The translations under genes and the position numbers were made by a program. A stretch of 64,000 nt of DNA from Methyloglobulus sp. (lineage in GTDB: Bacteria; Pseudomonadota; Gammaproteobacteria; Methylococcales; Methylomonadaceae), in NCBI GenBank assembly GCA_013141505.1, contig JABFQX010000011.1, positions 3,631 to 67,630 of the forward strand, written 5' to 3'. Positions within the stretch are counted from its first letter, which is position 1, and each line of letters opens with the position of its first letter. Below the pieces are notes generated by a model. It searched no databases. It worked only from the letters and a program-made list of their open reading frames with translations, and was not told where the DNA came from. Below, in pieces: positions 857 through 33,500 of this stretch.

Positions 857-1561
857 GTGAATAATGATAATTTGACCAAAGGTGTATTCGCAGCATTATT
901 GCTGGTTAGTACTGTGGCAAGTGCGGAAGACAAATACCCCGCCTCTGATTTTCAACCCAAAGTGGTTTATCAGGATGAGGCTGTAGCAAAGAGTGCTGAA
1001 GCTAGCGGTTCCACAACTAAATCGGCTTCAACAGCATCCAGCAGCGATTCACAATTTCCAGCGGCTGACTTTGAACCTAAAGTTGTCTTTTCGGATCCTG
1101 ATTATAAGCATACTGCATCAAGTCCAAACCCTAATGCGGGTTCTAGCTCTTCCTCATCAATGAGCGATACCACGCCATCAGGTGCGGCTGATAGTTCTGC
1201 TGCGGTAGCAACTAAAGATGAATCTTCTATGGGTTACATACTTGGTTTGGTTGTACTCGCCGCCGCCGGTTTTGTGTTGTTTAAACGCGGCGCTGGCGCT
1301 AAAACGCCAACAGCTAAAAGCAATGCACCTAGAAATCAAGGCGGACTTACCGGGGTAGCAAAATACGTGTCTCGTATCTCCGGTACTGGGGTGTCCAGAT
1401 ATTTGGAAAAAAACTCTAAGATTGCTTTATCTGCGGCAGCAAGTGCAAAATCTTCCGCAACCGGTGTTGATAAGTATCTGGCTAGTCAAGATTCTTCTGT
1501 AAGCGCGACTTCAAATAAAGGTGCTACCGGGGTTGAGAAGTATATGCGTAAAAAGGGGTAA
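857..1561 (+). CDS. Uncharacterised single-pass membrane protein with 2 periplasmic repeats and 4 cytoplasmic TGVx[KR]Y motifs
   Basis: Signal peptide (GVFAALLLVSTVASA), two repeats YPASDFQPKVVYQD and FPAADFEPKVVFSD, Ser-rich linker, TM helix YILGLVVLAAAGFVLF followed by KR, then LTGVAKYV, GTGVSRYL, ATGVDKYL, ATGVEKYM. GTG at 857 is preferred over 848 because aggtg lies 6 nt upstream. Confidence 0.85.
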   Translation: MNNDNLTKGVFAALLLVSTVASAEDKYPASDFQPKVVYQDEAVAKSAEASGSTTKSASTASSSDSQFPAADFEPKVVFSDPDYKHTASSPNPNAGSSSSSSMSDTTPSGAADSSAAVATKDESSMGYILGLVVLAAAGFVLFKRGAGAKTPTAKSNAPRNQGGLTGVAKYVSRISGTGVSRYLEKNSKIALSAAASAKSSATGVDKYLASQDSSVSATSNKGATGVEKYMRKKG

Positions 1562-1564
1562 TTG

Positions 1565-2818
1565 ATGAATCAAGAAAACTTTGGCGGGACAGTTATTCCT
1601 GCGATGGCTGGCTTTTTTTTATTTGGAAAACGAGCCAAAGTTCAGGAGATTCAAGGTGAAAAACCAAAGCAATTACCTGCGGTAATAAAAGCTGATATGG
1701 CTGGGTTGACCGGTGTTGCAAAGTATTTGATTTCGGTGCCTTTGGTGACAGGTGTCGCCAAGTATCTGAAAAAAAATGACAATCAGCCTATTTCGAGCGT
1801 CCAAAAGTACGTATTGAAGCAAATGATTGCCGAGCGAAACGCGCCATCGGTCACCGGTGTTGCCAAATATCTGGATAAAGCCGGTAAACAAATACCGGCG
1901 AGAAAAAAATCAGGTGTTGATCGATATATTACTAAACAAGAATTAGCGTCAAGAAGTATTGTTACTTTGACAGGAGTCGCAAGGTACGAGGCGGAACAAA
2001 CCCTAATCGAAAAGAGACAGGCTGCTGCCGCTATGATAAAAAAATATCGAGATGAAGAAGATGCCGCGCGGGAAGCAAAGAATATTGCACAAGCAACTTC
2101 TTTGGCATCGGCAGATGTGTCTACTCAAAATGGTGAAGCAATAGAAGCGGTATCTGCAACGCGTGTTGGAAGATATTTACAAGAACAAAATAAATTGGCA
2201 AAAAGCCAGCCCAAGGTAACGGGGGTATGTCGGTATTTAGCTAAACAAATAATTCTAGAGAGTCAAAAGCCGACGTTGAGCAAAGTTGAAAAATATTTAA
2301 GAGGGCAAGCGGTTACTTTAAAGAAAAAACCCAATCTTACGGGTGTTGCTAGATATTTATCTAAACAACATACCGAAGTAACGCCTAAAGCTAAAACAAA
2401 ACTGCTTCCAGCAAGTGGCGTAGCTCGATATCTGCAAACCCAGTCGATAGGTGATAGCAAAAAAACCGTGCTGTCCGGGGTAGCAAAGTATATGGAAAAG
2501 TTAGCTGATTTAGATGTCAGTGACAAAAATATATTGGCAATTGCTATTGAGGCTGAAATTGACGAAGCTAACGATCACATTCCAACGGCTGTGGTTGAAG
2601 AGTGTCTGGAAGGTGAATTTATTCCGGCACACTCATTTCCATCTTTATCAGGAGTTGAAAAATACCTCGATAAACAAACTGTTAGAGAAGAAAATGTTGT
2701 GGAGGAAGTCTTAACTGGTGTTTCCAGATACCTTAAACAACAGTTACAACCACTAAAACAAACACAGGCGTTGCCATTAAGAACCGGTGTCGACAAATAT
2801 CTATCAAATAGAGCCTGA
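1565..2818 (+). CDS. Uncharacterised low-complexity protein with ~15 [TS]GVx[KR]Y[LIVM] motifs
   Basis: 12 clear motif copies (e.g. LTGVAKYL, VTGVARYL-type, LSGVEKYL, RTGVDKYL) and 3 degenerate ones (ISSVQKYV, ATRVGRYL, LSKVEKYL), separated by K/Q/P-rich spacers. RBS aagggg overlaps the end of the upstream gene; ATG at 1565. Confidence 0.85.
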   Translation: MNQENFGGTVIPAMAGFFLFGKRAKVQEIQGEKPKQLPAVIKADMAGLTGVAKYLISVPLVTGVAKYLKKNDNQPISSVQKYVLKQMIAERNAPSVTGVAKYLDKAGKQIPARKKSGVDRYITKQELASRSIVTLTGVARYEAEQTLIEKRQAAAAMIKKYRDEEDAAREAKNIAQATSLASADVSTQNGEAIEAVSATRVGRYLQEQNKLAKSQPKVTGVCRYLAKQIILESQKPTLSKVEKYLRGQAVTLKKKPNLTGVARYLSKQHTEVTPKAKTKLLPASGVARYLQTQSIGDSKKTVLSGVAKYMEKLADLDVSDKNILAIAIEAEIDEANDHIPTAVVEECLEGEFIPAHSFPSLSGVEKYLDKQTVREENVVEEVLTGVSRYLKQQLQPLKQTQALPLRTGVDKYLSNRA

Positions 2819-2971
2819 TAAATTAATTACAAATGCTACAGGTTATTTTTAACATAAGGCATTGATAATATGGAATAACTAATCTAGGTAACGCCATGCG
2901 TCCTTCACTTTTAAGCGGATTTGTGGTAGTATCTGGCTCCCTAAAATTCTAACTTTTCTAAAGGTACTAAT

Positions 2972-3976
2972 ATGGCTAAGAATTTACTTGAACAACTCAG
3001 AGAAATGACTGTTGTTGTTGCTGATACCGGCGACATACAGGCCATCGAAACTTTCAAACCACAGGATGCAACAACAAATCCTTCCTTGATTACCGCTGCG
3101 GCGCAAATGCCCCAGTACCAAGGTATCGTTGATGACACATTGAAAGCTGCCAGAAATTATTTGGGAAATGATGCAACTGCCGCGCAAGTCGCTTCGTTGG
3201 CATTTGACCGATTGGCAGTTTCGTTTGGCTTGAAAATACTTGAAATTATTCCTGGTCGCGTATCAACAGAAGTTGATGCCAGACTTTCGTATGATACAGA
3301 GGCGACCATTGCTAAAGGTCGTGAGATTATAGCCCAATATGAAGCAAAAGGTATTTCCAAAAACCGCGTATTGATTAAAATTGCTTCTACCTGGGAAGGT
3401 ATACAAGCTGCGGCAGTGCTAGAAAAAGAAGGTATTCACTGTAACCTGACGTTACTGTTTGGTTTGCATCAAGCCATTGCTTGTGCTGAGAACGGTATTA
3501 CCTTGATCTCACCTTTTGTCGGTAGAATTCTCGATTGGTACAAAAAGGACACTGGACGTGAGTCTTATCCTGCGAATGAAGATCCAGGGGTCTTGTCGGT
3601 GACTGATGTTTACAATTACTACAAAAAATTTGGTTATAAAACCGAAGTCATGGGCGCAAGTTTCCGTAATATCGGCGAAATCACCGAATTAGCGGGCTGT
3701 GATTTATTGACGATTGCACCCTCCTTGTTAGCTGAATTGCAAGCTGCGACTGCTGAGTTGCCACGGAAGTTAGATCCAGCGAAAGCGACCAATGCAGATA
3801 TCCAAAAAATTACTATGGATAAGGCCACCTTTGATCGTATGCACCAAGAAAACCGGATGGCTAATGACAAGTTGGCGGAAGGTATTCTGGGCTTTGAGAA
3901 AGCATTGGAATCTTTAGAAGAGTTGCTATCCGCAAGACTGGCTAAGCTGGAACATAAAGAATCCCAACCTGCATAA
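2972..3976 (+). CDS. tal: Transaldolase
   Basis: [39 protein letters not shown] (catalytic Lys), [15 protein letters not shown]. Confidence 0.98.
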
Positions 3977-4025
3977 TAATCAATGTAGGCACTCACAAGA
4001 GCCTGTTTATTTTAACAAACACTAT

Positions 4026-4055
4026 CGCCCCGACACCCTGTGCCGGGGCGTTTTT
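4026..4055 (+). terminator. Intrinsic terminator between tal and fbaA
   Basis: cgccccgacac-cct-gtgccggggcg GC-rich stem followed by TTTTT. Confidence 0.6.
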
Positions 4056-4081
4056 ATTATTTACCTAGACGATTTAGTGAT

Positions 4082-5161
4082 ATGACACAAAAAATTTTAG
4101 ATGCCGTTAAACCCGGTGTGGTAACTGGTGCAGATGTCCAAAAAGTTTTTGCAATTTGTAAAGAAAATAGCTTTGCTTTACCTGCTGTCAATGTAATCAA
4201 TACCGATTCCATAAATGCTGTTTTAGAAGCGGCCGCAAAAGTTAAGTCTGCTGTTATCGTACAATTCTCAAATGGTGGCGCGTCATTCTATGCTGGCAAA
4301 GGCTTAAAACTTGAAGGACAACAAACTGCGATTTTAGGCGCTATTTCAGGTGCACATCATGTTCACACCATGGCTGAATACTATGGTGTGCCGGTCATTT
4401 TACACACTGACCATGCCGCAAAGAAACTGCTTCCTTGGATTGACGGTTTGTTGGATGCTGGTGAAAAACAGTTTGCTAGCACTGGCAAACCGCTATTCAG
4501 CTCCCACATGCTTGATCTATCTGAAGAGAGCTTGAAAGAAAATATTGAAATATGTGGTCAGTACCTGAAGCGTATGGCTAAGATGGACATGACGCTGGAA
4601 ATTGAATTAGGTGTCACGGGTGGTGAAGAAGATGGCGTTGACAATAGCGGCATGGATCATTCTTTGTTGTATACCCAGCCGGAAGATGTCGCATATGCCT
4701 ACGAAGAACTCAACAAAATCAGCCCTCGGTTTACCATCGCAGCTTCTTTCGGAAACGTACATGGCGTGTACTCGCCCGGAAATGTAAAACTAACCCCAAG
4801 TATCTTAGCGAATTCACAAAAGTATGTATCCGATAAATACGGTGTGCCAAAAAACACATTGAATTTTGTTTTTCATGGTGGTTCAGGTTCAAGTCCGCAA
4901 GAAATCAAAGAATCTATCAGCTACGGTGTAGTGAAGATGAATATTGATACCGACACCCAATGGGCAACTTGGGCGGGCATCATGGATTTTTACAAGAAAA
5001 ACGAAGGTTATTTGCAAGGTCAAATCGGCAATCCAGATGGTGCCGATAAGCCGAACAAAAAATTCTACGATCCTCGCGTTTGGCAACGTGCAGGCGAGGC
5101 CGGAATGGTTGCCCGTTTGGAACAGGCGTTCCAAGAGTTAAATGCTGTAAATTCACTGTAG
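4082..5161 (+). CDS. fbaA: Fructose-bisphosphate aldolase class II (type A)
   Basis: FALPAVNV, VILHTDHAAKKLLPW, FSSHMLDLSEE, GNVHGVY, FVFHGGSGS, KMNIDTD. Start taken at ATG 4082 rather than GTG 4040, which lies inside the terminator. Confidence 0.98.
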   Translation: MTQKILDAVKPGVVTGADVQKVFAICKENSFALPAVNVINTDSINAVLEAAAKVKSAVIVQFSNGGASFYAGKGLKLEGQQTAILGAISGAHHVHTMAEYYGVPVILHTDHAAKKLLPWIDGLLDAGEKQFASTGKPLFSSHMLDLSEESLKENIEICGQYLKRMAKMDMTLEIELGVTGGEEDGVDNSGMDHSLLYTQPEDVAYAYEELNKISPRFTIAASFGNVHGVYSPGNVKLTPSILANSQKYVSDKYGVPKNTLNFVFHGGSGSSPQEIKESISYGVVKMNIDTDTQWATWAGIMDFYKKNEGYLQGQIGNPDGADKPNKKFYDPRVWQRAGEAGMVARLEQAFQELNAVNSL

Positions 5162-5578: not shown

Positions 5579-8185
5579 ATGAAAAATTGTTTAAAAGTGT
5601 TTGGTGCGCTATTTGTTATGTTACTTGTGACAAATGCTAACGCGTTTGACAAGATTATGCTGAATCACAAGTCTGTTTTATTTACGGCATTTGAGCAAAC
5701 CGTGCCTTTGGTAAAGACTGGCTATGTGGGGTGGAATGCGAATTGGAAATGGGCAGGGGAAAAAGTGACCCCTACCTTTCTGGGTACTGTAAATGATGTC
5801 ACTGGAAATTTTGTCGGTAAAGTCGCTAAGCTAGGCATATCTTTTACGGGTTCAGTAACGCAACCTGTTGTTCCTCAAGAAATGGTTTGGACATATGATT
5901 GGAGCTTGGCGCAAAACCATCCAAATGCAATCGGTTTCGGAATAGAATTTGATTTTAAATTGAAAACTCCGGTTTTTCCGTTGCCAGCCACGCCACCGAT
6001 CATCCTCCCGGATAATGAGGGGTGGCGTTGGAATACGCCCGATGGACAGTCAATAACAGTAAAATTTAAACCTGCTTTGGCATCAGTGAATTTTTCGTCG
6101 AAAGGGCTGGATAAGGTACGGGCATTGTTTTTTACCAAGATTAACCCAGGTATAAAACAAACAATAATGACAGTGACGGTTGATCCGCAACAGGTACTTT
6201 CTGGGCCAACCTATATGAGATACAAAGGTGTAAATGCCGATGCCTGGGATAGGAATATATTATCGGATACGGCATCGCCTATCGACTTATCTTTTTTGAA
6301 CGCCGACGAGCTGCCTGCCGGAAAACATGGCTTTTTAAGTGCAAAAGGCGATAAACTGGTGTTTAAGAGTCCGGGTAATCCAGATATTCCTGCCAAGTTT
6401 TGGGGCACTAATTTATTGGCTTACGCCCTATTTAGTACCCAGAATGACGATATAAGGGTTCATGCGAAGCGAATTGCCCAGCTTGGGTATAATTTGGTAA
6501 GAATTCATCACCATGATTCAAAATGGGTTCACCCCAGTATATTCAAGCACGTCAACGATACGCTGGTGCTTTCAGAAAAATCTTTACAAAAGCTCGATCT
6601 GTGGATTAAGGCTTTAAAAAACCACGGCGTTTATGTTTGGCTTGATTTACACGTTGGGCGGACATTTACCGTCCATGATGGTATAGATAACTTTAAAGAC
6701 GCCTCAAAAAACAAAAAAAGTGCCGAGTTAAAAGGGTTTAATTATTACAACACAAGCATTCAAGATAAGATGATGAAATTTAATGAAGATTATCTGAATC
6801 ATGTAAATCCTTATACGGGACTGGCGTATAAAAATGACCCGGCGATTGTCAGTGTGTTGATGACCAACGAAAATGATTTAACCAGGCATTTTGGCAACGC
6901 ATTACTAAAAAGAGGTGGTGCCCTTCAGCATCACGCCATTTTCAAGAAAGATGCCGTTCAATTTGCCAAGACACATCGTCTTCCAGTTAGTGAAACTTTG
7001 GCGACTTGGACTTACGGCGCGGCAAAGATCTACCTTAACGATGTAGAGCACAGGTTCAATCAGAAAATGATAAGCCACCTGGAAAATATAGGCGTACAAG
7101 TGCCTATTGTAACCACAAGTAGCTGGGGTTATATGGGGCTGTACGGGTTGCCTTCATTGACGGATGGTGGAATTATTGATGCCCATTCTTATGGCCATGC
7201 AGAAGAGTTTAGCTATAACCCAAGATACAACCCAGGGTTCCTAAGTTGGGTTGCAGCGGCTCAGGTTTCCGGCAAGCCATTGTCAGTCACTGAGTGGAAT
7301 ATGGGGCCTTTTCCTGTGATCGATAGGTATACAGCGCCTATTTTTACGGCCAGCGTGGCCAATCTGCAGGGCTGGGACGCAATGATGGGGTATGGATACA
7401 ATTTTAAAAGCCTTAGCGTCCCCGACACGACTGGCGATAATTATTCTACGTACAATGATCCGGCCATGATTGGGCTGATGCCAGCTGCGGCATTACTTTA
7501 TAGGCAGAATCATGTTTCTCAAGCGAAACAAGCCTATGAGCTGACGCTTCCGGCAAAAGATTTTTTTAATGACAATGATCCAACCAATTCAAAAACCATC
7601 AGGACATTGTTAGAAACAAGCAAATTGTCGATTGCCATGCCTGGTACGCGCGAGTTGCCTTGGTTGCAGAACAATACCCAGCCTGATGGGGTGATAAGCG
7701 TATTCGATGCAAATAGAGATTTTATTCCGCCTGATCAGAATTATGTTGAATCGGATACGCATGAATTAAAGCGAGATTGGGTTGAGGGTATTCAAACCAT
7801 CAATACCAAAAAATCCCAGATTGCTTCGGGTTATATAGGTGGCAAGCCAATTGGCTTGGACAATGTGTCGTTTAATATTGTAACAACCAGTGCTGTTGTT
7901 GCCGTACAGAGCCTTGAGGACAAGCCGATAGCCGATTCTACAAAAATTTTCATCACCGCCATGGCGCGGTCTCAGCCGATTGATTCGGCCAACAGCCTAC
8001 CGTTTTTGTCAGAGCCGATTGAAGGCATTATCATTGTTAAAGCACCGAAAAATTTAACGTTGTACCGTGTTGACAGGGATGGTGCAAAAATTGAAACAGT
8101 TGCTGCCGCCCTATACGATGAGTTGGCAGGCAGCTACACGATTGATTTAAGTGCGGCAAAGGGGCATTGGCTTATTTTGCAATAA
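5579..8185 (+). CDS. Secreted glycoside hydrolase, GH5-like (clan GH-A) with accessory beta domains
   Basis: Signal peptide; FWGTN, GYNLVRIHHHD, DLWIKALKNHGVY, HVNPYTGLAYKNDPAI, acid/base motif TNEND, nucleophile motif VTEWN. Confidence 0.75.
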   Translation: MKNCLKVFGALFVMLLVTNANAFDKIMLNHKSVLFTAFEQTVPLVKTGYVGWNANWKWAGEKVTPTFLGTVNDVTGNFVGKVAKLGISFTGSVTQPVVPQEMVWTYDWSLAQNHPNAIGFGIEFDFKLKTPVFPLPATPPIILPDNEGWRWNTPDGQSITVKFKPALASVNFSSKGLDKVRALFFTKINPGIKQTIMTVTVDPQQVLSGPTYMRYKGVNADAWDRNILSDTASPIDLSFLNADELPAGKHGFLSAKGDKLVFKSPGNPDIPAKFWGTNLLAYALFSTQNDDIRVHAKRIAQLGYNLVRIHHHDSKWVHPSIFKHVNDTLVLSEKSLQKLDLWIKALKNHGVYVWLDLHVGRTFTVHDGIDNFKDASKNKKSAELKGFNYYNTSIQDKMMKFNEDYLNHVNPYTGLAYKNDPAIVSVLMTNENDLTRHFGNALLKRGGALQHHAIFKKDAVQFAKTHRLPVSETLATWTYGAAKIYLNDVEHRFNQKMISHLENIGVQVPIVTTSSWGYMGLYGLPSLTDGGIIDAHSYGHAEEFSYNPRYNPGFLSWVAAAQVSGKPLSVTEWNMGPFPVIDRYTAPIFTASVANLQGWDAMMGYGYNFKSLSVPDTTGDNYSTYNDPAMIGLMPAAALLYRQNHVSQAKQAYELTLPAKDFFNDNDPTNSKTIRTLLETSKLSIAMPGTRELPWLQNNTQPDGVISVFDANRDFIPPDQNYVESDTHELKRDWVEGIQTINTKKSQIASGYIGGKPIGLDNVSFNIVTTSAVVAVQSLEDKPIADSTKIFITAMARSQPIDSANSLPFLSEPIEGIIIVKAPKNLTLYRVDRDGAKIETVAAALYDELAGSYTIDLSAAKGHWLILQ

Positions 8186-22705: not shown

Positions 22706-24829
22706 ATGAGGGTATTGCCGTGGCTTGCAAAAAAATGGCTGGTTTTATGTGTGATTATTGCCGCGTTGTTGGGTGCTGTAGTTGATGTCACACTGGGTAC
22801 TAAAATAGATTACTGGATCCATGATGCCGCACTGGTTTTCCAAGCCAGAACAGAATGGAAATCCACTGCCATCATCGTTTTGGATGACGATGTCCCTATT
22901 CAGGTAAGTCGTAAACAAGCGTTACCTTTATTTGCGAAAGCCGCCGAAAATGCACTTGCCGCCGGGGCAAAAGGGGTTTTTCTGGATGCTCGGATACCCA
23001 AAGAGATTGAAGGCATTATGCCTTACGCGCTGTGTATCGAGACAAACGGGACAGTACGTTGGTCTAATCCCGGTTGTGAGATAACCGAGCACAACCAATG
23101 CGAATTGCGTAACAGTGCCGTAGGCCATGCGCCTTTAGCCATGAAAGGCTCAGTTTTTTCGCATTTTAAGATCGCACCTTATCTTGCTGATTCAAGCAAA
23201 CTACCTGATTTTTTATTGTTTGGTGTCGCAGCGGAAACCTATATCCCTGACACCGGGCTTGTTGCTTCGGATCGGATAATCGCAAAAAACTCCCCCATTA
23301 ACCGATGGTTTGAACTCAGAGAAAATCACGCAATTATTTCGCTGGCAAAGTTTATAGATCCCCAAAAAGTAAGTGAATCATTAAAGTCTGAAGATAAAGA
23401 AGTCTGTGATAAAGGTGTATTTTGTCGACGTATCAGGCTAAGCCGTCCGTATTACAATCTCCAGCCTTCACCTAAACAACCAATTATCCCAGTGAGTCAT
23501 TTGGCCGCCTGTGATAATCGAATTACCGAACAAGAAGCCTTGGTATTAAAAGATAGGGTCGTGATTTTGCAGTTAACCGCGCCTTCAGAGTCAACTGATA
23601 TGTTAGTCACCCCGATGACATCAGCTTTACTGGGGTCGCATTTATTAACGCCAGGCGCACAATATTTGGCAGATGCGGTTGAGACGGTTTTAAATAACGA
23701 TCATCCTCGTGCACCACCTGAAATAGTTAAGCTGGCATTGTTTTTAATTGTAGCTTTATTAAGTGTTTATGTCGGTGCTTACATGAAGCAATGGGTACTC
23801 TGGAGTGTCGGCGCAACGCTGTTTATTTTGCTGAGTGCGCTATGTTTTCTTTTTCCGGTACAGCAACTTTGGCCAGTAACGGCCACCTTGTTAACTTTTA
23901 TGACAGGTGCAGCGCAGGCCATAGGTATTCATTTGGTTATCGGTTTTAGGGAAGGAAAACTGATTACTCAGTATATGCCCAAGCAAGTCCATCATTTGTT
24001 GCTGTCCCTAAAAGAAGATGAGGTTTTCCAAGGTCAACGCTATCAGGTTATTGTGCTGATGAGCGATATGACCGGTTACACTACCATCACCGATATCCTT
24101 AAAGAACCCGGGCATGTGTTAGAGCTGATGAACGATTATCTGGAAACCGCATTCGTCCTGCAAAAGAAATATGATGCTTGGCTGGAAAACTATATGGCCG
24201 ATATGGTGTGTTATTACTGGCCTAAAAAAAACCGGCATCAACAGGATGATTTTCGCAATGCCCTGCAAGGCGCGATTGAATTATCCCAGCTACAAAAGCA
24301 ATTTTTTTCGGGCATTAAAGATCGGTATAAGCATAAGTTTAATCCCAACGCACTAAACAATATCAGCCAACTTATTGATGCCGGTATAGGTCTTGCGTGT
24401 GGCACGGTGGTAATGGGGGATTTAGGTCCTAAACAAGGTGTCAGAAAGTTTGGGATTTTGGGTGACCCTTTAAATTTGGCCACCAGAATTGAAAGTCTTA
24501 CCCGCTATTTTAATTCCGAAATCGTCGTGACCGCTGATTTTTTAGAATCAGCAAAGCAATTAGGCTATGGAATCAGGCGATTAGGGTCGTTTACAGTAAA
24601 AGGACGGCTGCATCCTGAGCATCTGTATACAATTGGCACTTTCGATGATCCACGCTTTCAGCAAGCCAATGTCGAATTGTGGGAAAATTGGTTGGCAATC
24701 GAAGAGAATGATAGAGATACAAACAATGCGGAATGCCCCGAGATTTACGATAAAGACCGATTGTCACTGCGTAACTGGAAAGCCAAAGGCTTATTAATAA
24801 AGGGCGTTTGGCACTTGGATGAAAAATAA
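22706..24829 (+). CDS. CHASE2-domain class III nucleotide cyclase
   Basis: N-terminal TM, CHASE2 (IIVLDDD, AGAKGVFLD, PGAQYLADAVETVL), three TM helices, cyclase motifs VLMSDMTGYT, YMADM, GTVVMGDLG, LGDPLNLATRIE, TVKGR. Confidence 0.85.
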   Translation: MRVLPWLAKKWLVLCVIIAALLGAVVDVTLGTKIDYWIHDAALVFQARTEWKSTAIIVLDDDVPIQVSRKQALPLFAKAAENALAAGAKGVFLDARIPKEIEGIMPYALCIETNGTVRWSNPGCEITEHNQCELRNSAVGHAPLAMKGSVFSHFKIAPYLADSSKLPDFLLFGVAAETYIPDTGLVASDRIIAKNSPINRWFELRENHAIISLAKFIDPQKVSESLKSEDKEVCDKGVFCRRIRLSRPYYNLQPSPKQPIIPVSHLAACDNRITEQEALVLKDRVVILQLTAPSESTDMLVTPMTSALLGSHLLTPGAQYLADAVETVLNNDHPRAPPEIVKLALFLIVALLSVYVGAYMKQWVLWSVGATLFILLSALCFLFPVQQLWPVTATLLTFMTGAAQAIGIHLVIGFREGKLITQYMPKQVHHLLLSLKEDEVFQGQRYQVIVLMSDMTGYTTITDILKEPGHVLELMNDYLETAFVLQKKYDAWLENYMADMVCYYWPKKNRHQQDDFRNALQGAIELSQLQKQFFSGIKDRYKHKFNPNALNNISQLIDAGIGLACGTVVMGDLGPKQGVRKFGILGDPLNLATRIESLTRYFNSEIVVTADFLESAKQLGYGIRRLGSFTVKGRLHPEHLYTIGTFDDPRFQQANVELWENWLAIEENDRDTNNAECPEIYDKDRLSLRNWKAKGLLIKGVWHLDEK

Positions 24830-24878
24830 CGGTTGTGACTGGTTTAGATAAAGTACGACCTAAATTAAAATGAAAAAT

Positions 24879-25592
24879 TTAAAACCCATTCGGCAGCTTC
24901 TTTTTGAGCGTGATAATTTTTTTGTCAATCGCCAGGTATTCGCCAGTTTCCAACTGTTTTAAAATCCGGCTGATGACCTCCCGGCCTGAGCCGACACGCG
25001 AAGCGATTTCCTTATGTGTCAATGGGATAGCCACAGTTCCCTCGCCGCCTTCTTCTACGGGTGTCGCCAAGGTATACAAATAATCCCTTAATCGGGCGTA
25101 CACATCCATCAAAGCCAGGCTCTGGGCAATGCTGTTGGTAAAGCGGATTTTCAGGCATAAATACCGGATTACGTGCATGGCGACTTTTGGATTTTGTTCG
25201 AGCAGTTGCAAGAAAACAGCCTTATGCAGCACAACTAGGGAGCACTGTTCCAGTGCGACAACACTGGCAGATCGAGGTTTGTCATCCAGCAGGGAAAGTT
25301 CCCCGAAACAATCGCCCGCTTTTAGGATGGCTAAAATCAATTCCTTGCCGTCTTCGTTACTGACCGTGACTTTCAGCGACCCTGATTCGATGAGGTACAT
25401 CGAACTGGAGTCATCGCCGACATTAATCACTATCGTGTTTTTGGGATAAGTCCTTTTTGAAACCTTTTCTGCAAGACTTTTTAAGTCGCTCTCGTCCAGA
25501 TTACTAAAAAATTCGTTGTTCTTGAGAAGATCGGTCGTATCCATAGGTTTAGGAATGTTGGCTTTATGGAAATAAACGTACGAAGCATACAC
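24879..25592 (-). CDS. Crp/Fnr-family cNMP-binding transcriptional regulator
   Basis: cNMP pocket FGELSLLDDKPRSASV; HTH LTHKEIASRVGSGREVISRIL. Real start may be MDTTDLL. Confidence 0.93.
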   Translation of the reverse strand: MYASYVYFHKANIPKPMDTTDLLKNNEFFSNLDESDLKSLAEKVSKRTYPKNTIVINVGDDSSSMYLIESGSLKVTVSNEDGKELILAILKAGDCFGELSLLDDKPRSASVVALEQCSLVVLHKAVFLQLLEQNPKVAMHVIRYLCLKIRFTNSIAQSLALMDVYARLRDYLYTLATPVEEGGEGTVAIPLTHKEIASRVGSGREVISRILKQLETGEYLAIDKKIITLKKKLPNGF

Positions 25593-25724
25593 CGAAACTC
25601 TTGTGCTATGTAGCTTATTTTAATGCTATTCAATTGAAAATTATCAATAAATAGCTTTTTCAATCACCTTCTGATCAGTACGGCACTCATCAATAATAAG
25701 GCTCAAAACAGGTCATTTCTGACT

Positions 25725-25845
25725 TTTTGTGCATAAGTCACAAAATTAGTGTTCTTAAGTCACTGATTCAGATTTTGGCGTTTCATACACTGTATCTGCC
25801 GATTGAGAAAGCCACTTGAACGGCAAAAACGGTGATTTAGTCACC
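25725..25845. promoter_or_regulatory. Two GTG[AC]-N5-TCAC palindromes in the divergent crp / repeat-protein promoter region
   Basis: ttttgtgc-ataag-tcacaaaa (25725-25745) and ggtga-tttag-tcacc (25831-25845). Confidence 0.35.
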
Positions 25846-25903
25846 TAAATGAATGGCGGTCATGTTGGCCGTTATTAATTTCAAAACTTTAGAGGATATT
25901 AAA

Positions 25904-26314
25904 ATGAAAACATTTATTACAACAACGGCATTGGTACTTAGTTTTGGTGTAGCCGGATTAGCGTTGGCGGAGGGCACTAGGATAGAGCAAAACTCCACTA
26001 TCCATAATAAAGGAAAAAATAATAAAACCCAAAATTATAGTGAAGGTAAAAATTCAGTTGCGAATACAGGCTCAATTTTTATAAATCAAGCAAAGATTAG
26101 TAACTCAACAATAGATAATAAATCTGAAAATAAAAATACTTTGAACTCCTCTACTGGTGTTGGATCGACCGCCAATACGGGTTCTATCGCTATTAATAAA
26201 GGCGTAGAAATTAAGGGGTCTAAAGTATTCAACGATACTAACAATACAGATACCAACAACATATCGGGAGGAGAGAACTCAATAGCTAATACAGGTTCTG
26301 TTGACATTAGATGA
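25904..26314 (+). CDS. Secreted Asn/Ser/Thr-rich protein with three ~38-aa imperfect repeats (curlin/Fap-like candidate)
   Basis: RBS agagga + ATG 25904; signal peptide ending ALA; repeats end ANTGSIFI, ANTGSIAI, ANTGSVDI; mature part has no Pro or Cys. Confidence 0.8.
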   Translation: MKTFITTTALVLSFGVAGLALAEGTRIEQNSTIHNKGKNNKTQNYSEGKNSVANTGSIFINQAKISNSTIDNKSENKNTLNSSTGVGSTANTGSIAINKGVEIKGSKVFNDTNNTDTNNISGGENSIANTGSVDIR

Positions 26315-26320
26315 TATTTA

Positions 26321-26368
26321 GCGGGGAGGCAGTTGGGTCAATTTCCCAATTACCACCCCGCCTTTTTT
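26321..26368 (+). terminator. Intrinsic terminator after the repeat-protein gene
   Basis: gcgggg..ttggg-tcaattt-cccaa..ccccgc followed by TTTTTT. Confidence 0.65.
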
Positions 26369-26379
26369 AAAATGAGGGT

Positions 26380-26694
26380 ATGAGAATGTATAAAAAATTC
26401 TTAGTTTGTCTGTTGGTGGGTAAATTATTCAGCAATCCTTTATTTGCAAATGACCTTGATGATGGGATAGGTCTTGATGAGGTAGCTAAAGACGATTTAG
26501 AAAAATCTATCAACATCCAATATTTTATTCGCAGTGCCAAAGCTAAAGCGGCTCAAGGAATTTATGAAATACCAGACTGTTTAGGCGCAGGTAACCAAAT
26601 CTTCGGGCCGGGCGCTAATTTGAAGAATGCAACCATCATCAATCTTTCCAATAATAAAGGTACAAGCAGTGTTTGTACCAAAAACCTTAGATAA
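26380..26694 (+). CDS. Small exported protein with one degenerate copy of the Asn-rich repeat
   Basis: Signal peptide; C-terminal ANLKNATIINLSNNKGT resembles AKISNSTIDNKSENKNT of the upstream protein; two Cys. Confidence 0.65.
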   Translation: MRMYKKFLVCLLVGKLFSNPLFANDLDDGIGLDEVAKDDLEKSINIQYFIRSAKAKAAQGIYEIPDCLGAGNQIFGPGANLKNATIINLSNNKGTSSVCTKNLR

Positions 26695-26727
26695 AAAACC
26701 CATTACTGATTATGGGAAGGGGCTGAC

Positions 26728-28293
26728 ATGAACTATTTAAAGGTACCAAAAAACGTCTTGAGTGTTATTGGCTTGCCGTTTCTGCTAGTAGGCTGCAGCC
26801 TGAACCCTCAGAATGCGGACATCGGATTGAATGAGACACTACCGGAAGCAAAAGTGACCATCTACCAGCAAGCCATCGACCAATTAGGGTTGATGACAGC
26901 GGTATACGGATCTGCGCCGCTTAAGATTATGACCAAAGACATACTGGATAATACTGGTACGTCGGTAGCCACCAATGCAGAAATACCCCGTGACATCACC
27001 GAAATGGTGAAAAGCACCTTAAACGGTATTGGCGGCAATGTTTTGTATATCCCTTACGAACCCCTGTTTATGCAGAATACGGCAGGTACGGGTTATTCCG
27101 ATTATGGTGACAAGATTTTGCCGCAAATTATCCTATCAGGGGGCATTACCGAATTTGACCGGGGTTTGGTCACGGATGGTGATTCCCTGGATTTGGATTT
27201 TGAAATAGGCAAGGAATACGGTATTAATTTTGCTGACCAGGTTAAGGCATCGTTATCAAGTGTAACTCTGGACTTCAATTTAATTGATTTCAAAACCTTT
27301 ACCGGAATCCCACGGATACAAGCAATCAACGGGATCAAACTCCATAAAGCTGTTCGGGAAGATAGTATAGGGTTTACCGTTAAAAGCGCTACGTTCGGCT
27401 CTAGGGGTGAAATCAAGAAGGTACAGGGTCGCCATGCGGCAGTGCGCTTACTGGTGCAGCTGAGTATGTTGCAATTGATAGGCCGTTACGAAAAAATCCC
27501 TTATTGGCGGTTAATTCCGGGAGCGGCTCGGGATGAGGTAGTGATTGATCAAGTGTTGGCTGATTACTACGCAATGAGCCAAAAACAACAGATACAAAAT
27601 ACCCAAGCACTTTTATATCTGCATGGTTACAGCGTTGTACCTAGCGGCAGAATGGATACCAATACCCAACTTGCATTGCAAGGCTTTGCAAAAACCCAGA
27701 ATATGAACGCGGAAGTCTTGGATCAAAATTTATATCTGGCACTTTATGAGAATGTGCCTATCAATGCCGCGACAAGACAACGGCGGAGCAGTTTAGAGAG
27801 TGGAATTGTTAATGTGGTTAACCAAGGCAATTTGATCTCAGGCCGTAAACCAGCCGCGAAGAAGTCAAGAGAACGGGCACAACGTGCCGAAACAACGGCG
27901 CAAACGTTGGTTGATTCAGGCCAATTAACCTTGGCGACCAATAAATCCGAATATCGGATTGGCGAAAAGTTAAACGTACATTTTTCGGTCAATAAGCCAA
28001 TGTATGTGCGGGTTGCTTTAATTAACTCTCAAGGGAAAGTCGATACTGTTTTTCCGAATGTGTATCAAAGCAATAATTATTGTGTGCCAGGTAAAAAATA
28101 CAGCATCCCGGCAGTCGGGGCTGATTTTTCCCTGGATATTAGCGGCCCTGTAGGCATCGATAAATTAAGGGCAGTAGCAAGCGAAAAACCCGTGCCTGCT
28201 GAAGCCCTGTTTTTTACCAAAGAAGGTCAGTTTGATGCCAGCCGAATGGCGAGTTACAAAGTCAGGGCTGCAGCTGATTATGTCATTCGTTGA
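26728..28293 (+). CDS. Lipoprotein: CsgG/HfaB-like domain + peptidoglycan-binding domain + DUF4384
   Basis: Lipobox LLVGC; IILSGGITEFD and SSVTLDFNLID resemble CsgG-family strands; LYLHGY..PSGRMDTNTQLALQGF is PG-binding-like; YRIGEKLNVHFSVNKPMYV...TVFPN...GPVGIDKL is DUF4384-like. Confidence 0.65.
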   Translation: MNYLKVPKNVLSVIGLPFLLVGCSLNPQNADIGLNETLPEAKVTIYQQAIDQLGLMTAVYGSAPLKIMTKDILDNTGTSVATNAEIPRDITEMVKSTLNGIGGNVLYIPYEPLFMQNTAGTGYSDYGDKILPQIILSGGITEFDRGLVTDGDSLDLDFEIGKEYGINFADQVKASLSSVTLDFNLIDFKTFTGIPRIQAINGIKLHKAVREDSIGFTVKSATFGSRGEIKKVQGRHAAVRLLVQLSMLQLIGRYEKIPYWRLIPGAARDEVVIDQVLADYYAMSQKQQIQNTQALLYLHGYSVVPSGRMDTNTQLALQGFAKTQNMNAEVLDQNLYLALYENVPINAATRQRRSSLESGIVNVVNQGNLISGRKPAAKKSRERAQRAETTAQTLVDSGQLTLATNKSEYRIGEKLNVHFSVNKPMYVRVALINSQGKVDTVFPNVYQSNNYCVPGKKYSIPAVGADFSLDISGPVGIDKLRAVASEKPVPAEALFFTKEGQFDASRMASYKVRAAADYVIR

Positions 28294-28310
28294 AAATGGA
28301 GGATTGAGAT

Positions 28311-28616
28311 ATGAAACCGATAATTGTATTGATTATGTCTAGTGGAATAATGTTGCAGGCGTGTGAGCAAGCACCCGTGCGACGCACAGAAATGCTGGCA
28401 GAACATTCAGGCTGGGGAAATGAAGCCGCCCAGTTGATCAAAGCAGGCTATTTGACGCAAGGGATGGATCAGGAACAAGTTGAAGCCGCATGGGGCAAAC
28501 CTTGCTGGAGTTGCACAGGCACTACACAAGGCGACTGGGGCGCAGCATGGCAATATGCGACACAAACGGTATTTTTCGATAAAGATGGCAAAGTAACCCG
28601 ATGGGAAGCCAATTAA
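28311..28616 (+). CDS. Small lipoprotein, SmpA/BamE-like fold
   Basis: Lipobox LQAC; GMDQEQVEAAWGKP...WQY...VFFDKDGKV. Confidence 0.6.
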   Translation: MKPIIVLIMSSGIMLQACEQAPVRRTEMLAEHSGWGNEAAQLIKAGYLTQGMDQEQVEAAWGKPCWSCTGTTQGDWGAAWQYATQTVFFDKDGKVTRWEAN

Positions 28617-28667
28617 AATTAAAGGTTAATGTTTCCTAAACACAGCTAAAAATATGAGGATAAGGCA

Positions 28668-29246
28668 ATGAAATTAAATAGATTATTGGCAATGGGTGGC
28701 AGCATTTTATTAATTGTCCTACAAAGTGCTTTGGCTACAGCAGAACAAGTCGAGCTATATGAACGACCACCCAGTGCAGCAGAATTGGGACAAGTCCTGT
28801 TCGGCCATCAGGCCAAAGAAAGCGGCAACGTAACTACCCGTTCGATCAATATCAACCCCAAGTCTAAAAGCCCCATTGCAACCGCGCAACGTGTCGAAGC
28901 GGAACGGAAAAGCGTCGGCTTGCCGATTGAATTCGCCTACAACTCTACCCAGATATTGCCGGACTCCAAGCCATTCCTGGATGAAGTCGGCAAGATGCTG
29001 AATATGCCCGAATATGCCATTAATAGGCTGATTATTGAAGGCCACACCGATGCGGCTGGCTCCGATGCCTACAATTTGGCCTTGTCAAAACGTCGTGCCC
29101 GTGCGGTCAGCGACTATTTGGTGGAGAACTTTAGAATTCCCCGTACCCGCTTGCAAAGCCAGGGCTTAGGGGAAACCAAGCCCATTGCAGGTCGCGATTC
29201 TTACGACGAAGTCAATCGCCGGGTACAGTTTTACAGCGCTAACTGA
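28668..29246 (+). CDS. OmpA-family peptidoglycan-binding periplasmic protein
   Basis: IEFAYNS, LIIEGHTDAAGSDAYNLALSKRRARAV, GLGETKP, NRRVQF. Confidence 0.9.
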   Translation: MKLNRLLAMGGSILLIVLQSALATAEQVELYERPPSAAELGQVLFGHQAKESGNVTTRSININPKSKSPIATAQRVEAERKSVGLPIEFAYNSTQILPDSKPFLDEVGKMLNMPEYAINRLIIEGHTDAAGSDAYNLALSKRRARAVSDYLVENFRIPRTRLQSQGLGETKPIAGRDSYDEVNRRVQFYSAN

Positions 29247-29286
29247 ACGTAATTTGAAGTACTGTTTTTTTAAACGGAGGTGGCAA

Positions 29287-30027
29287 ATGAATAGCATAAT
29301 TAACCTGCGATTCATAAGACAAGTCAACGCGGTGCTGTTTTTGACTGCAACCGTCATCCATTCGGCCTGGGCGGGTCAAGTCGTCACCGGCAAGATAATC
29401 ATCGACGGTGTAATCGTTGGCGATGGCAATAATCAGGTCGTCAATGGGTCAGCCATAATGGCTCACGAAAAACGCCAAGTTGGAGCGTTTGATCGCGTGA
29501 TAACCGAAGGCAGTATTGATATTCGCTATCAGCAAAGTGCAGTCACGAATGTAGAAATTTCGGGTGACCAAACTATATTGCCGCTTATCAAGATTGAAGC
29601 CAATGCGGGATTATTAAGGATCAGTTCGACTGAAAGTTACCAAAGCCGATTACCTATTGTTGTTACTATGAGTGCGCCGCATATCAAACAACTGACGATG
29701 AACGGCGCGGGCGATGCTGAACTTAACGATCTTGACGAGGATGAATTTAAGCTGGAACTCAACGGCAGCGGCAATGTAGTCGCAAATGGCAGGGCAGGTG
29801 AGGTAATCGTCAAGATTGATGGCTCCGGTGACGTAAACGCAAAAAACCTGATTAGCCAGAAGGCAGATGTCAGTATTAATGGCTCTGGAAACCTGGCACT
29901 TACCACAAGCCAATATCTAAAAACCAATCTGGTAGGAAGTGGCGATGTCACTTACTACGGACATCCCAAACAGGTAGAGAAACAAATGAATGGTAGCGGT
30001 GAAATTAAGTCAGGGGACGCATTGTGA
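29287..30027 (+). CDS. Exported GIN/DUF2807 beta-helix (adhesin head-like) protein
   Basis: RBS ggagg + ATG 29287; repeats of NGAGD / NGSGN / DGSGD / VGSGDVTYYGHP. Confidence 0.8.
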   Translation: MNSIINLRFIRQVNAVLFLTATVIHSAWAGQVVTGKIIIDGVIVGDGNNQVVNGSAIMAHEKRQVGAFDRVITEGSIDIRYQQSAVTNVEISGDQTILPLIKIEANAGLLRISSTESYQSRLPIVVTMSAPHIKQLTMNGAGDAELNDLDEDEFKLELNGSGNVVANGRAGEVIVKIDGSGDVNAKNLISQKADVSINGSGNLALTTSQYLKTNLVGSGDVTYYGHPKQVEKQMNGSGEIKSGDAL

Positions 30028-30368
30028 GCCATTTTAGCGTTAAGGAAGCACTTGTTTTGGTCTGTTTTTTTGGGATTTTTGCTTTGAAAAGTCAGGCTGA
30101 TGGGGAGTTATTGCCGACGAATATCACTATTTCTAAACACGATAAAACGCCGCTTGCCGTTAACCAGAAACCTTGGATTGAGTTGCACGGAAGCGTAAAC
30201 GGAAAACCTGTTTACTTGATGGTCGAAAAAACCGATGACCAGCATATTGCCGGGTATTTGTTCGATGCAAGCGGTAATAAGCACTATGTTTACGGAGAAT
30301 GGTTTAATAACCAATTACAGGTTTATGATCAAGCCAACAAGAGGCTAACCGTCCTTTTATACGAATGA
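30024..30368 (+). CDS. Exported hypothetical protein
   Basis: Signal-peptide-like N terminus; GTG overlaps the stop of the upstream gene. Confidence 0.6.
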   Translation: MSHFSVKEALVLVCFFGIFALKSQADGELLPTNITISKHDKTPLAVNQKPWIELHGSVNGKPVYLMVEKTDDQHIAGYLFDASGNKHYVYGEWFNNQLQVYDQANKRLTVLLYE

Positions 30369-30546
30369 TTGAGGTGTTTCTGCTGGAACCCCTCAAAAGT
30401 TAATATTAGCTGAAAAATTTATAATATACCTAGCAAATACAAAATGTTAGGATTAGTAAGTCATTAGTAGCCAGACAAGTATAGGCTTTTCAAGAACAGA
30501 TTCACATATAAAGCGCTTTACATCAGATTAATTAAAAGAGGCCATC

Positions 30547-33500
30547 ATGCATACCATTGTCAATTTTCAATTGTTAATCCGCGCGGCAGTCGTGGCTTTT
30601 GTTTTAGGCTTCGCAACGATTGCCGCTAGTGAACCTCAAGTCCTCGATGATCCGCAGCAATTAGACAGCCCGGATAAATGGCGGCAGCTCTTGCTCAAAG
30701 ATTCGTCAGTTAATAGTGCCCAGACGAGAAGTATCGGAATTGGAATTGGAGGCAGCGCAACTGCGATGCCGTCACCCGTTATCGACCTGCGTATTTTGTT
30801 TGCCCTGAATTCCAGCGATATAGAGGCACGTTGGCATGATGCCTTGCAAGCCCTATCTACCTTATTGCAGCAAGAACCGAATTTGGCATTGTTGATTGAA
30901 GGGCATACTGATGCTTACGGTAGTCAGGCAACCAATGAGCGTCTGTCCAGCGAACGGGCTATCGCGGTGAAATATTTTCTTGCCGGGAAAGATGCGGCGA
31001 CCAGTCCCCGGCTATCTGCAGTCGGACGCGGCGCTAATGCACCACTTTATGCTGATCGTTTTGACCCCAGAAATCGCAGGGTAAGTTTTAGCGTGGTAAC
31101 GGCAAATGCGGCTGATAGCCAAACTGATTCAAGTGATAGCGCAAAACCCCAACTATCAACACCGCCCAATGCATTGCCTGAATTGCCTGTCCCCCCAGCA
31201 CCCAGCCCAAAAAATAAAATGAGTGCAGAGGATGTACAAGCCTTATTAAAACAGCTTCAGGGCGGCCTAAAAAAAGGCAAAGATATAAAATCACTCAGTA
31301 CGCAATTAGCTAAGCAATTAAAGCAACAACAGGAGACATTTGCAGTCATTGGGCAACAAGCCGCCCGTGTTATGGAAGATCTTGCGCTGTTGCGGCGGGC
31401 AGCTACAGACGATGAGGCGCTGCGGATTGCCGAAGATTTGCTGGAAAACAAGCGAAAGGCATTAGGGACTCAGCACAGAGAGGTACAAGATTTTTTGCTA
31501 TCCCTTGCTGGCGTATACATGCAGCGTGGCAATGCCGATAAGTTGTTAGCGTTATACCAGCGCAATTATGAAATACTTCGTCAAATTCTGGGTTCTGACA
31601 AACAGGAAACGCTCAAGGCACTATTAGACCTGGCGCAATGTAACATTGTTATGGTGTCTAAACTCAAAGTTGACCGCGAGGCGTTCGGTAAAGCACAGCT
31701 CTATCAAGCAACAAATGCGTACGAAAAGTTTTCGGATTCGGCTAAACGTGAGGATATTGCAACTAATGTTTACGGTTCTCTTATCTATGAGATTGCCATG
31801 ACATATAAGCGGATAGGTGATTACCCGACCTCTCGCTATTATTTTGCAAAATTGTTATCGCTTGTTGAGTCTGCCAAAGGTGTCGATGCCATTGAAACCA
31901 AGGGCGCTGAATCCCTGTTAGCGGATGCATATGCCTTGATTCCCGCTGAAGCCATCAGTAAAGCAATTCCACTGTATCAGAATAAGTTGTCTGAATTCGA
32001 TGAGCGGATTGCCGCCGCTAAGGTAAGTAACACTAATTTAAATGGTGAGCAATCGTTGCTGCCCGTTAAAATGGAACGAGCCATGCTTTTAGGTAAAATG
32101 GCTGGTGTCTACGCGAAAGATCAACAATATGCTAAGGCTCTGGATTTTTACCGCAAGGCTTTGACAGGAGATATTCCGCTTTCATTGATGCAATCTGATC
32201 AACAGTTTCTTATCTCGGCTGCGATAATGCCAAAGGGAACGGAATCTGTTATGAGCATGTCAGTGGTCAAAGATGCCGCTTTGTCATTTATTGCCAAACA
32301 TTTCTCGAAAGATGAAACTGCAGTCCGCTTTGCTTATGAATTGGTCCTTAAAGACAAAGGATCGGTACTTGAAAAAGAACGTGTGAGCCACTTGGACGGC
32401 GAAGGCAAGCCGGCACTTGGGCAAAAGTATGCAAATGACACGGGCGGCGATCATTCTATTGAGAGTCAATTAAAAATGGTGGACAAGCAAATTAAGCAAT
32501 TGATGCCCGTAACTATAAGTAAAGGAGAGACACAGGTAATAACGATAGAAAATGTCGCCAAGGCACTGCCCAAAGACAGTGTTTTCGTAGACTTCGTCAC
32601 ATTAAACAACCTTGATGAATTAAGCAGCCATTACAAAAAGCATAATCCTTTTACCGGCAAGGATCGTGGAGTGCGGTTTGATGCCTACTATTTGGTATTT
32701 GTTCTAACTTCCGGCAATCAAATCACGCTGACCGACCTGGGCTATGGGGTACAGTTAAACGCTAAAATCGAAAAGATGATGACGGCTATTACCGATCCGA
32801 AGGCGCAGCAAGATCCTGCATCAGAAAATACCATCAAGACATTGTTGGCAGAAATTTATAGTCTTGTCCTTAAGCCACTGGAATCCAGGTTTGCTCCCGA
32901 CAAAAACTTGATCATCAGTCCTGATGGTGACCTTAATAGGCTGCCTTTTGCGGCGATGATAACCGGTGAAGGAAACTATCTGATCGAAAAACACAAGTTA
33001 AATTATGTTTCCAGTGCCAGGGATCTATTGCACACATCTTCGGCCAAGCCGCCAGCGCTTGAGTTGGCGCTCCTTGCCGCACCCGCCTATGACGAAAAGC
33101 TGCAACAAACCGGGGGCGGGAATTATTCTGCGGTACGGGCGCGGGATTTTTCCAAGATGTTTCAGCCACTTCCCGGAACACTCAATGAGATGCAAGATAT
33201 TCCGCCGCTTGTAAAAGGTAAGCAGCTGGTTTTGCAGGGTTCAGAGGCGACGGAGTCGGCTTTACGCCAATTGAATTCGCCCCGTATATTGCATTTGGCA
33301 ACCCACGGTTTCTTCTTGAGCGATGAGATTGCCCGTGGAATAGGTTTGGACAATGATCCGGCATTATTTGCCTTGTCAGGGTTAGATCAAACCGTAGCAC
33401 GTGCGCGAGCCAAGCATTCAGCAGCCGAATTTAGCCCCATGGTGCGATCCGGTTTAGCGTTCGCTGGCGCGAACCATGCCAAAGAGGTCTCATCCGGAGA

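Follow-up and report, generated by a model that had tools for sequence, protein, structure and literature searches.

EPYC1 and the other Rubisco-binding-motif proteins of the Chlamydomonas pyrenoid (RBMP1, RBMP2, SAGA1/2) carry a short helical sticker repeated along an unfolded linker, and the sticker also occurs on membrane proteins. CsoS2 of the alpha-carboxysome and CcmM of the beta-carboxysome are likewise disordered or repeat-built scaffolds encoded within a carbon-fixation operon; in CsoS2, repeated short helical peptides bind Rubisco and [VI][ST]G triplets bind the shell. Here we analyze a 64,000-nucleotide stretch of Methyloglobulus sp. (positions 3,631 to 67,630 of contig JABFQX010000011.1, contig C96 in our set; hereafter the window), which opens within the operon of the ribulose monophosphate (RuMP) cycle. 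Between the genes for transketolase (tkt) and transaldolase (tal) lie two genes, termed P1 and P2, whose products share a repeated short motif. No carbon-assimilation locus of type I methanotrophs has been studied more than the RuMP operon, which is also among the main targets in efforts to engineer the conversion of methane and methanol, and these two conserved genes in its middle have neither a name nor an annotated domain. P1 and P2 belong to a protein family of the methanotroph order Methylococcales. The sequence-only reading that this analysis followed up knew of no description of such a system, and our literature search, which extended to methane assimilation, found no paper describing it.

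The likeness to EPYC1 is one of design: in both cases the genes belong to the principal route of carbon fixation, and stickers repeated on an unfolded chain would cluster and tether an oligomeric enzyme. The differences are equally clear. P1 and P2 have no sequence relation to EPYC1, they are bacterial and belong to the RuMP cycle rather than to Rubisco, and both seem to be membrane-attached. Unlike the EPYC1 system, many genomes have only a tether with 3–5 motifs, P1 adds a periplasmic motif, and the client is one that we infer. The [VI][ST]G triplet of CsoS2 resembles the [LV][ST]GV core of the P1/P2 motif, but CsoS2 and CcmM are not homologous to P1 or P2, and their anchor is a protein shell where P1 and P2 would use a lipid membrane. 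Searches of Pfam and NCBIfam and a profile search of PDB sequences gave no homology to EPYC1, CsoS2, or CcmM. The microcompartment shell gene PF00936 is absent from the genome (positive controls worked), and CsoS2-like shell binding through [VI][ST]G was ruled out because the genome has no bacterial microcompartment gene.

A man-made system shares the purpose proposed here. Mdh-Hps-Phi assemblies, reportedly engineered by Price et al. in 2016, place 3-hexulose-6-phosphate synthase (Hps) near the source of formaldehyde so that this toxic intermediate is captured. They are built from fusions or adaptor domains, whereas P1 and P2 would be a natural, membrane-based version that uses short linear motifs. 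Assemblies and scaffolds of this kind have been reviewed for synthetic methylotrophy (PMC10771841). To judge by these comparisons, P1 and P2 belong to no described family and, if the mechanism set out below is right, would represent a membrane-based variant of the sticker-and-linker design that serves formaldehyde rather than CO2 fixation. We tentatively propose, with somewhat less than even confidence, that P1 and P2 tether a client, most likely an enzyme of the RuMP cycle and at best guess Hps, to the membrane through multivalent helices.

A repeated motif in two genes of the RuMP operon

The motif [ST]GVx[KR]Y[LMV] is present in 4 copies in the cytoplasmic tail of P1 and 15 copies in P2, of which 12 are clear and three degenerate (SSVQKY, TRVGRY, and SKVEKY); these counts are exactly those of the sequence-only reading. 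It is nearly confined to the two proteins. Translating the whole genome in all six frames yields 7.7 million residues, in which [TS][GK]Vx[KR]Y[LIVM] is matched 18 times, and 16 of these matches fall within P1 and P2. Because the copies differ at synonymous positions, drawing on four different codons each for Val (the full set) and Gly, on the two families of Ser codons, and on either Tyr codon, it is the peptide and not the DNA that is conserved, as had been claimed. In an alignment of 41 P2 orthologues, conservation is 0.80 in motif columns and 0.49 elsewhere, all indel columns (140/140) lie outside the motifs, and every one of the 15 motifs has an invariant Val and an invariant Tyr. Judged from this alignment, selection is on the motif rather than on the linkers.

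A logo built from 1267 instances in 96 P2 proteins reads P(-3)-x-[LVAI]-[ST]-G-V-[ASE]-[KR]-Y-[LMV]-x-[KR]-Q(+9), with Pro at -3 in 46% of copies and Arg replacing Lys in 28%. Successive motifs are most often spaced by 20, 16, or 15 residues. When the proteins were modelled alone with AlphaFold, every motif started a helix at Gly or Val with Ser/Thr as the N-cap, and the motif helices had a predicted local distance difference test score (pLDDT) of 60–90. In the models, the helix is two to four turns long and Ser/Thr-capped, and Val, Tyr, Leu, and Gln share one face, in agreement with the short S/T-G-capped helix suggested previously. The two proteins also end alike: both C-termini are TGV[ED]KY[LM]xxxx, both proteins have at least three copies, and the last copy lies 11–12 residues from the C-terminus. 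In P1, the final motif is TGVEKYMxxxG-COOH, and 101 of 105 P1 proteins have its start 11 residues short of the C-terminus.

The features of the two genes and of the operon around them are as follows (window coordinates unless stated otherwise).

Contig C96 coordinates: hps 1050–1691, phi 1704–2237, tkt 2373–4367 (the window is C96:3631–67630)
3–737, + strand: 3' end of tkt (transketolase), from the translated open reading frame (ORF); the rest of the gene lies upstream on the contig
857–1561, + strand: P1, the core family member, a 234-amino-acid (aa) type I single-pass membrane protein, from its ORF, homologues, and AlphaFold
857–925, + strand: predicted P1 signal peptide, aa 1–23, cleaved at ...VASA|ED, with an invariant Ala at -1
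935–976, + strand: periplasmic motif, copy 1, YPASDFQPKVVYQD
1055–1096, + strand: periplasmic motif, copy 2, FPAADFEPKVVFSD
1229–1282, + strand: P1 transmembrane (TM) helix MGYILGLVVLAAAGFVLF, followed by KR; hydropathy 2.4, AlphaFold helix 123–145 with pLDDT of about 82
1346–1558, + strand: P1 cytoplasmic tail, with motifs at 1346–1369, 1382–1405, 1457–1480, and 1523–1546
1565–2818, + strand: P2, 417 aa with 15 motifs; ORF start behind an AAGGGG Shine-Dalgarno sequence
1580–1633, + strand: N-terminal hydrophobic head of P2, FGGTVIPAMAGFFLFGKR, resembling the end of the P1 TM helix
1706–2803, + strand: P2 motif array, 15 copies spaced mostly by 20 residues with Pro-containing linkers; each copy starts a predicted helix
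1967–2092, + strand: conserved central segment of P2, which opens with a motif and continues as a long helix
2603–2629, + strand: second short conserved P2 motif, CLEGEFIPA, found only in the closer P2 clade (32/96)
2972–3976, + strand: tal (transaldolase), directly 3' of P2
4026–4058, + strand: 11-bp GC-rich hairpin followed by TTTTTATT, between tal and fba
4082–5161, + strand: fbaA (class II fructose-bisphosphate aldolase)

The RuMP unit thus has the order hps-phi-tkt-P1-P2-tal-fba, and the 3' end of tkt opens the window. The P1 ORF (848/857–1561, +) and the P2 ORF (1562/1565–2818, +) share a reading frame, and P2, tal, and fba also lie in one common frame. The P1 start is most likely GTG at 857, which is preceded by AGGTG and gives the 234-aa database copy (P0121). 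For P2, the most likely start is ATG at 1565, located 7 nt past an AAGGGG in the 3' end of P1 and yielding a 417-aa protein (P0001). The position of this start codon 3 nt beyond the P1 stop, together with the AAGGGG inside P1, suggests that translation of the two genes is coupled. A fusion of P1 and P2 by stop-codon read-through was considered and rejected; the genes are in frame here, but their orthologues overlap in different frames (L015).

A simple sequence scan predicted no terminators between tkt, P1, P2, and tal. The hairpin and T-run between tal and fba may end or attenuate the hps-to-tal transcript, which would leave fba partly on its own. In tblastn searches of the assembly, no second hps, phi, tal, or fba was found and the only second match to tkt was distant (30% identical), so the operon is the organism's only RuMP gene set. 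Its closest named relatives are Methyloglobulus species, with P1 of M. morosus KoM1 being 57% identical.

As the sequence-only reading had proposed, P1 places the motif on a membrane-anchored protein, with a predicted signal peptide, a TM helix, and a basic tail of net charge +12. The periplasmic part is acidic and rich in Ser and Ala. It carries a second conserved motif, Y-P-A-x-[DN]-F-x-P-x-V-x-Y-x-D (YPAADFxPKVVYQD), in two copies here and 1–3 in homologues. From the predicted cleavage site it is 3 residues to the first copy here, and 3–4 in the homologues that we read. Genome-wide, this motif is found only in the two P1 copies plus one loose match in a 75-aa ORF. An apparent LPXTG/NPXTG sortase anchor (NCBIfam) was discarded, as its scores of 14.1 and 11.6 bits are below the cut-offs of 23.5 and 15.9 and it matches the TM helix alone.

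P2 lacks a signal peptide. Its hydrophobic head is followed by Lys-Arg, and the TM helix and tail of P1 align to P2 residues 9–108. Across the family, the P2 head takes the form of a strongly hydrophobic stretch (LFLPAVAGLFFFMKR), of a complete TM helix (P0303), or of a short amphipathic peptide of the MAGLFGFLLG type. P2 is therefore not the free linker first supposed; with this conserved head, it is predicted from sequence to be attached to the membrane. The protein has a pI of 9.5, and its longest predicted helix (aa 138–186, pLDDT of about 90), in the central segment, may form a coiled coil.

No folded domain was recognized in either protein, in line with the sequence-only reading. Pfam and NCBIfam contain no credible match to P1 or P2. 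AlphaFold models built on deep alignments have predicted template modelling (pTM) scores of 0.17 for P1, where the only structured elements are the signal helix, the TM helix, and the four motif helices, and 0.23 for P2. These scores indicate that both proteins are without tertiary packing, and neither a globular nor a solenoid fold was predicted. Pfam U1snRNP70_N (PF12220), the N-terminal region of eukaryotic U1-70K, does match P2 residues 89–167 (window 1829–2065) at 26.6 bits against a cut-off of 23. We rejected it as a compositional match to the charged long-helix region in a bacterial protein that has no RNA recognition motif. The same tag is precomputed for many homologues, and automatic annotation could mislabel the P2 family.

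Distribution and gene order in the Methylococcales

A large protein collection contains 618 homologues of P1 and 203 of P2, and all named ones come from Methylococcales. A P1 profile collected 536 clusters among 1.84 billion representative proteins and matched 278 of the 301 genomes sampled from the order, with none missed in the family to which the window belongs; some of the matches in other families cover the N-terminal part only. On 121 loci, we located the RuMP genes (hps, phi, tkt, tal, and fba) together with the ORFs that bear the motif. The order hps-phi-tkt-P1-P2-tal-fba is found in all 80 named loci and in loci of four families, as far as the contigs reach. P1 nearly always has 4 cytoplasmic and 2 periplasmic motifs, and P2 has 8–18 motifs in the mapped loci. 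Some genomes have P1 alone, or P1 with a P2 of only 142 aa. P1 is the core component and P2 an add-on. The many P1-only genomes, with 3–5 motifs, fit a tether better than a condensate.

A second arrangement is seen in the Methylococcaceae, where P1 stands directly upstream of hps in eight genera (in seven as P1-hps-phi) and tal, tkt, and fba are rearranged. Thus, the linkage of P1 to RuMP genes survives rearrangement, and it is kept in about 100 loci from five Methylococcales families. One Methylococcus-like genome has the unit tkt-fba-P1-hps-phi duplicated around tal; a 5.3-kb repeat described for strain Bath matches this duplicated unit (PMC517821). The locus tags that would correspond to the M. 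capsulatus P1 copies, MCA3042 and MCA3048, were not found in the papers searched. In another genome (L014, genome G018), a second copy of the operon's front half gives hps-phi-tkt-(18-motif protein)-hps-phi-tkt-P1-(5-motif protein)-tal-fba.

The two halves of P1 do not have the same distribution. In several Methylococcales families, genomes encode PmoB and no detectable Hps, and their sole match to the P1 profile consists of a signal peptide, periplasmic motifs, and a TM helix. These N-terminal-only matches in genomes with particulate methane monooxygenase (pMMO) and without Hps indicate that the periplasmic module is present with or without Hps. The cytoplasmic TGVxKY motif was found only in Hps-bearing genomes. 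A paralogue (L029 8031–8654, − strand) in the Hps-bearing genome G030 of family f7 has a signal peptide, two YPAA.F.P.VIYQ motifs, and a TM helix, followed by an acidic Ala/Glu-rich tail with no TGVxKY; its gene adjoins mutS, away from the RuMP genes. P1 resembles an adaptor with two sides, of which the cytoplasmic one is specific to RuMP, and the periplasmic motif and the paralogues may point to a wider family of adaptors in bacteria with copper monooxygenases.

The proposed tether, its client, and competing explanations

In the mechanism that we propose, P1 would be made with a signal peptide and would leave its unfolded N-terminal part, with two YPAADFxPKVVYQD motifs, in the periplasm. The chain would cross the membrane once and show four motifs on its basic tail, the last at the exact C-terminus. 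P2, translated just after P1, would present a hydrophobic head and then 15 motifs on short helices separated by proline-containing linkers. The conserved face of the motif helix would dock on a folded, oligomeric cytoplasmic protein; P1 would hold this client at the membrane, with P2 adding valency and cross-linking the client into a layer. The client would most likely be a RuMP-cycle enzyme, and Hps leads the candidates; formaldehyde fixation would then take place at the point where the cytoplasm receives the formaldehyde produced in the periplasm.

Tethering of Hps or another cycle enzyme in this way would make P1 and P2 the first natural scaffold of the RuMP pathway and a bacterial, membrane-based counterpart of pyrenoid and carboxysome linkers. 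The efficient capture of toxic, periplasm-made formaldehyde would become a directly testable question, and synthetic methylotrophy would gain a 13-residue tag together with a client surface.

The sequence-only reading had looked for the client among Tkt, Tal, FbaA, Hps, and Hpi. This list can be narrowed. FbaA is an unlikely client because the aldolase in the cluster is non-orthologous, only 24–27% identical, in several P1-bearing Methylococcaceae. Hps is favoured by its position next to P1 in that family and by co-variation with P1, although the latter is partly confounded, as discussed below. Five Methylococcaceae genomes, which represent four genera, carry hps but lack both P1 and any tandem copies of the motif. 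Hps of P1-less and P1-bearing Methylococcaceae is 66.5% identical, compared with 84.9% among the P1-bearing genomes themselves. The corresponding between-group and within-group values are 76.5 vs 77.7 for Phi, 82.5 vs 85.1 for Tkt, and 81.9 vs 80.3 for Tal. In trees, Phi of the P1-less genomes nests within the family, and their Hps falls outside the P1-linked Hps clade. At 24 positions of Hps, conservation across P1-bearing genomes reaches 90% or more, and most P1-less genomes have a different residue. The density of such positions per 100 residues is 11.3 in Hps, 4.0 in Phi, 1.7 in Tkt, and 0 in Tal. On an assignment from the general fold rather than from a structure, the 24 positions would lie on helices alpha-3, alpha-4, and alpha-6.

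Several observations weigh against a RuMP client in general or Hps in particular. Linkage to RuMP genes, the condition set by the sequence-only reading, holds for the roughly 100 loci above, with one exception: P0301, a 197-aa protein with six TGVxKY-type motifs whose gene lies between those for a glutathione peroxidase and a chromate transporter (L123 917–1510 and L124 2442–3035). This protein, the only such family member seen, is known from two short metagenome contigs, whose visible 4.5 kb contain none of the RuMP genes. Several RuMP methanotrophs have no P1. The co-variation of Hps is confounded by linkage: P1 adjoins hps in the Methylococcaceae, and a single deletion or replacement could take both. 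The P1-bearing genome G050, from a genus outside the set used to derive the 24 positions, keeps just 8 of them, no more than its P1-less congeners with 9 and 5, and so does not bear the positions out. The only assembled Hps of G050 is encoded in a stand-alone hps-phi pair. The contig that carries P1 in this genome ends within tkt, and the hps of that operon may simply not have been assembled. The single P1-bearing genome of genus g52 is represented by a 4.8-kb contig that is possibly mis-binned.

A separate observation concerns Hps itself. In the P1-less Methylococcaceae loci L024–L028 (genomes G105, G068, G076, G117, and G098), Hps is about 60–69% identical to that of the window. The divergent gene is sometimes present in two copies flanking phi (tal-hps-phi-hps), and Phi, Tkt, and Tal are ordinary.

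Binding of the motif to a protein outside the RuMP cycle would leave the operon position to reflect nothing but co-expression with one-carbon assimilation. The partner could be the cytoplasmic face of pMMO, another protein of the intracytoplasmic membrane, or a cytoskeletal or ribosomal part. P0301, outside a RuMP context, is consistent with this explanation, as is the periplasmic module of P1 in paralogues of pMMO-bearing, Hps-less relatives, which points to a tie with something other than RuMP. Maps of M. capsulatus pMMO in native membranes also show a TM helix and a periplasmic strand that have not been assigned (PMC11725843). However, the cytoplasmic motif is found only in genomes with Hps, its linkage to RuMP genes runs through two gene orders and five families, and both the paralogue L029 and the N-terminal-only matches of Hps-less genomes are free of it. 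Moreover, co-expression is rarely enough by itself to keep a gene within one operon throughout an order. We consider a non-RuMP partner unlikely.

The helices could instead bind lipid or bridge membranes, in which case P1 and P2 would act in the shaping or stacking of the intracytoplasmic membranes, which are disc-like in type I methanotrophs. The apparent membrane attachment of both proteins, the basic character of the chains (+12 for the P1 tail, pI 9.5 for P2), the amphipathic nature of some helices (hydrophobic moment up to 0.7), and the restriction of the family to an order with stacked membranes are all compatible with this. There is also a described class to compare with: like P1 and P2, alpha-synuclein and the apolipoproteins have many short, Lys-rich helical repeats (of 11 residues in alpha-synuclein and the apolipoproteins), are otherwise unfolded, and are linked to membranes. 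We rejected membership in this class of 11-mer lipid-binding repeats, which includes the perilipins. Motif spacing shows no 11-residue periodicity (20, 16, and 15 dominate), prolines break the helices, and mean helix hydrophobicity is mostly below zero, with a conserved hydrophobic face that consists only of Val-Tyr-Leu. The invariant Thr/Ser-Gly-Val and Tyr suggest specific recognition rather than bulk lipid affinity, and Pmo-bearing, Hps-less relatives have no motif. Lipid binding, which the sequence-only reading had offered as its alternative, is weakened by these results and appears quite unlikely.

Least probable of all, and in our view very unlikely, is self-association of the motifs into a client-free protein layer on the membrane, such as a diffusion barrier or a lysine/tyrosine-rich formaldehyde buffer: the same motif is present on P1 and P2, the long P2 helix is a potential coiled coil, and Lys-Tyr pairs are classical partners in formaldehyde cross-links, but AlphaFold packed no motif helices together (pTM 0.17–0.23), Arg replaces Lys in over a quarter of copies, and a chemical sponge needs neither an invariant Thr-Gly-Val cap nor fixed motif positions.

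Tethering of Hps could also be one half of a larger arrangement, in which P1 couples methane oxidation to carbon fixation. Its periplasmic motifs would dock PmoB of pMMO or methanol dehydrogenase, its TGVxKYL helices would hold Hps opposite, and P2 would cross-link Hps in a two-dimensional layer on the intracytoplasmic membrane. This extension is a long shot. The native-membrane maps of M. capsulatus pMMO place the unassigned TM helix between protomers, and the unassigned periplasmic density pairs with an edge strand of PmoB (PMC11725843). M. capsulatus P1, with its TM helix and strand-like N-terminal motif (YPPDFEPSVIYQD), may be a candidate for these densities, a lead rather than evidence. 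A two-sided adaptor, if real, could explain three things together: the TM helix, the edge-strand density, and the particulate (membrane-bound) state of M. capsulatus Hps that Ferenci, Strom, and Quayle reportedly described in 1974.

Other genes in the window

Directly 3' of the RuMP operon (5579–8185, + strand) is a gene for an 868-aa protein with an N-terminal signal-like segment; it matches no Pfam family at E 1e-5. Further along, 22706–33882 (+ strand) encodes a cyclase-like protein (22706–24829), a DUF4384 protein (26728–28293), and a 1111-aa OmpA-TPR-CHAT protein (30547–33882). These three genes look like a CHAT-protease cluster of a signalling or defence type.

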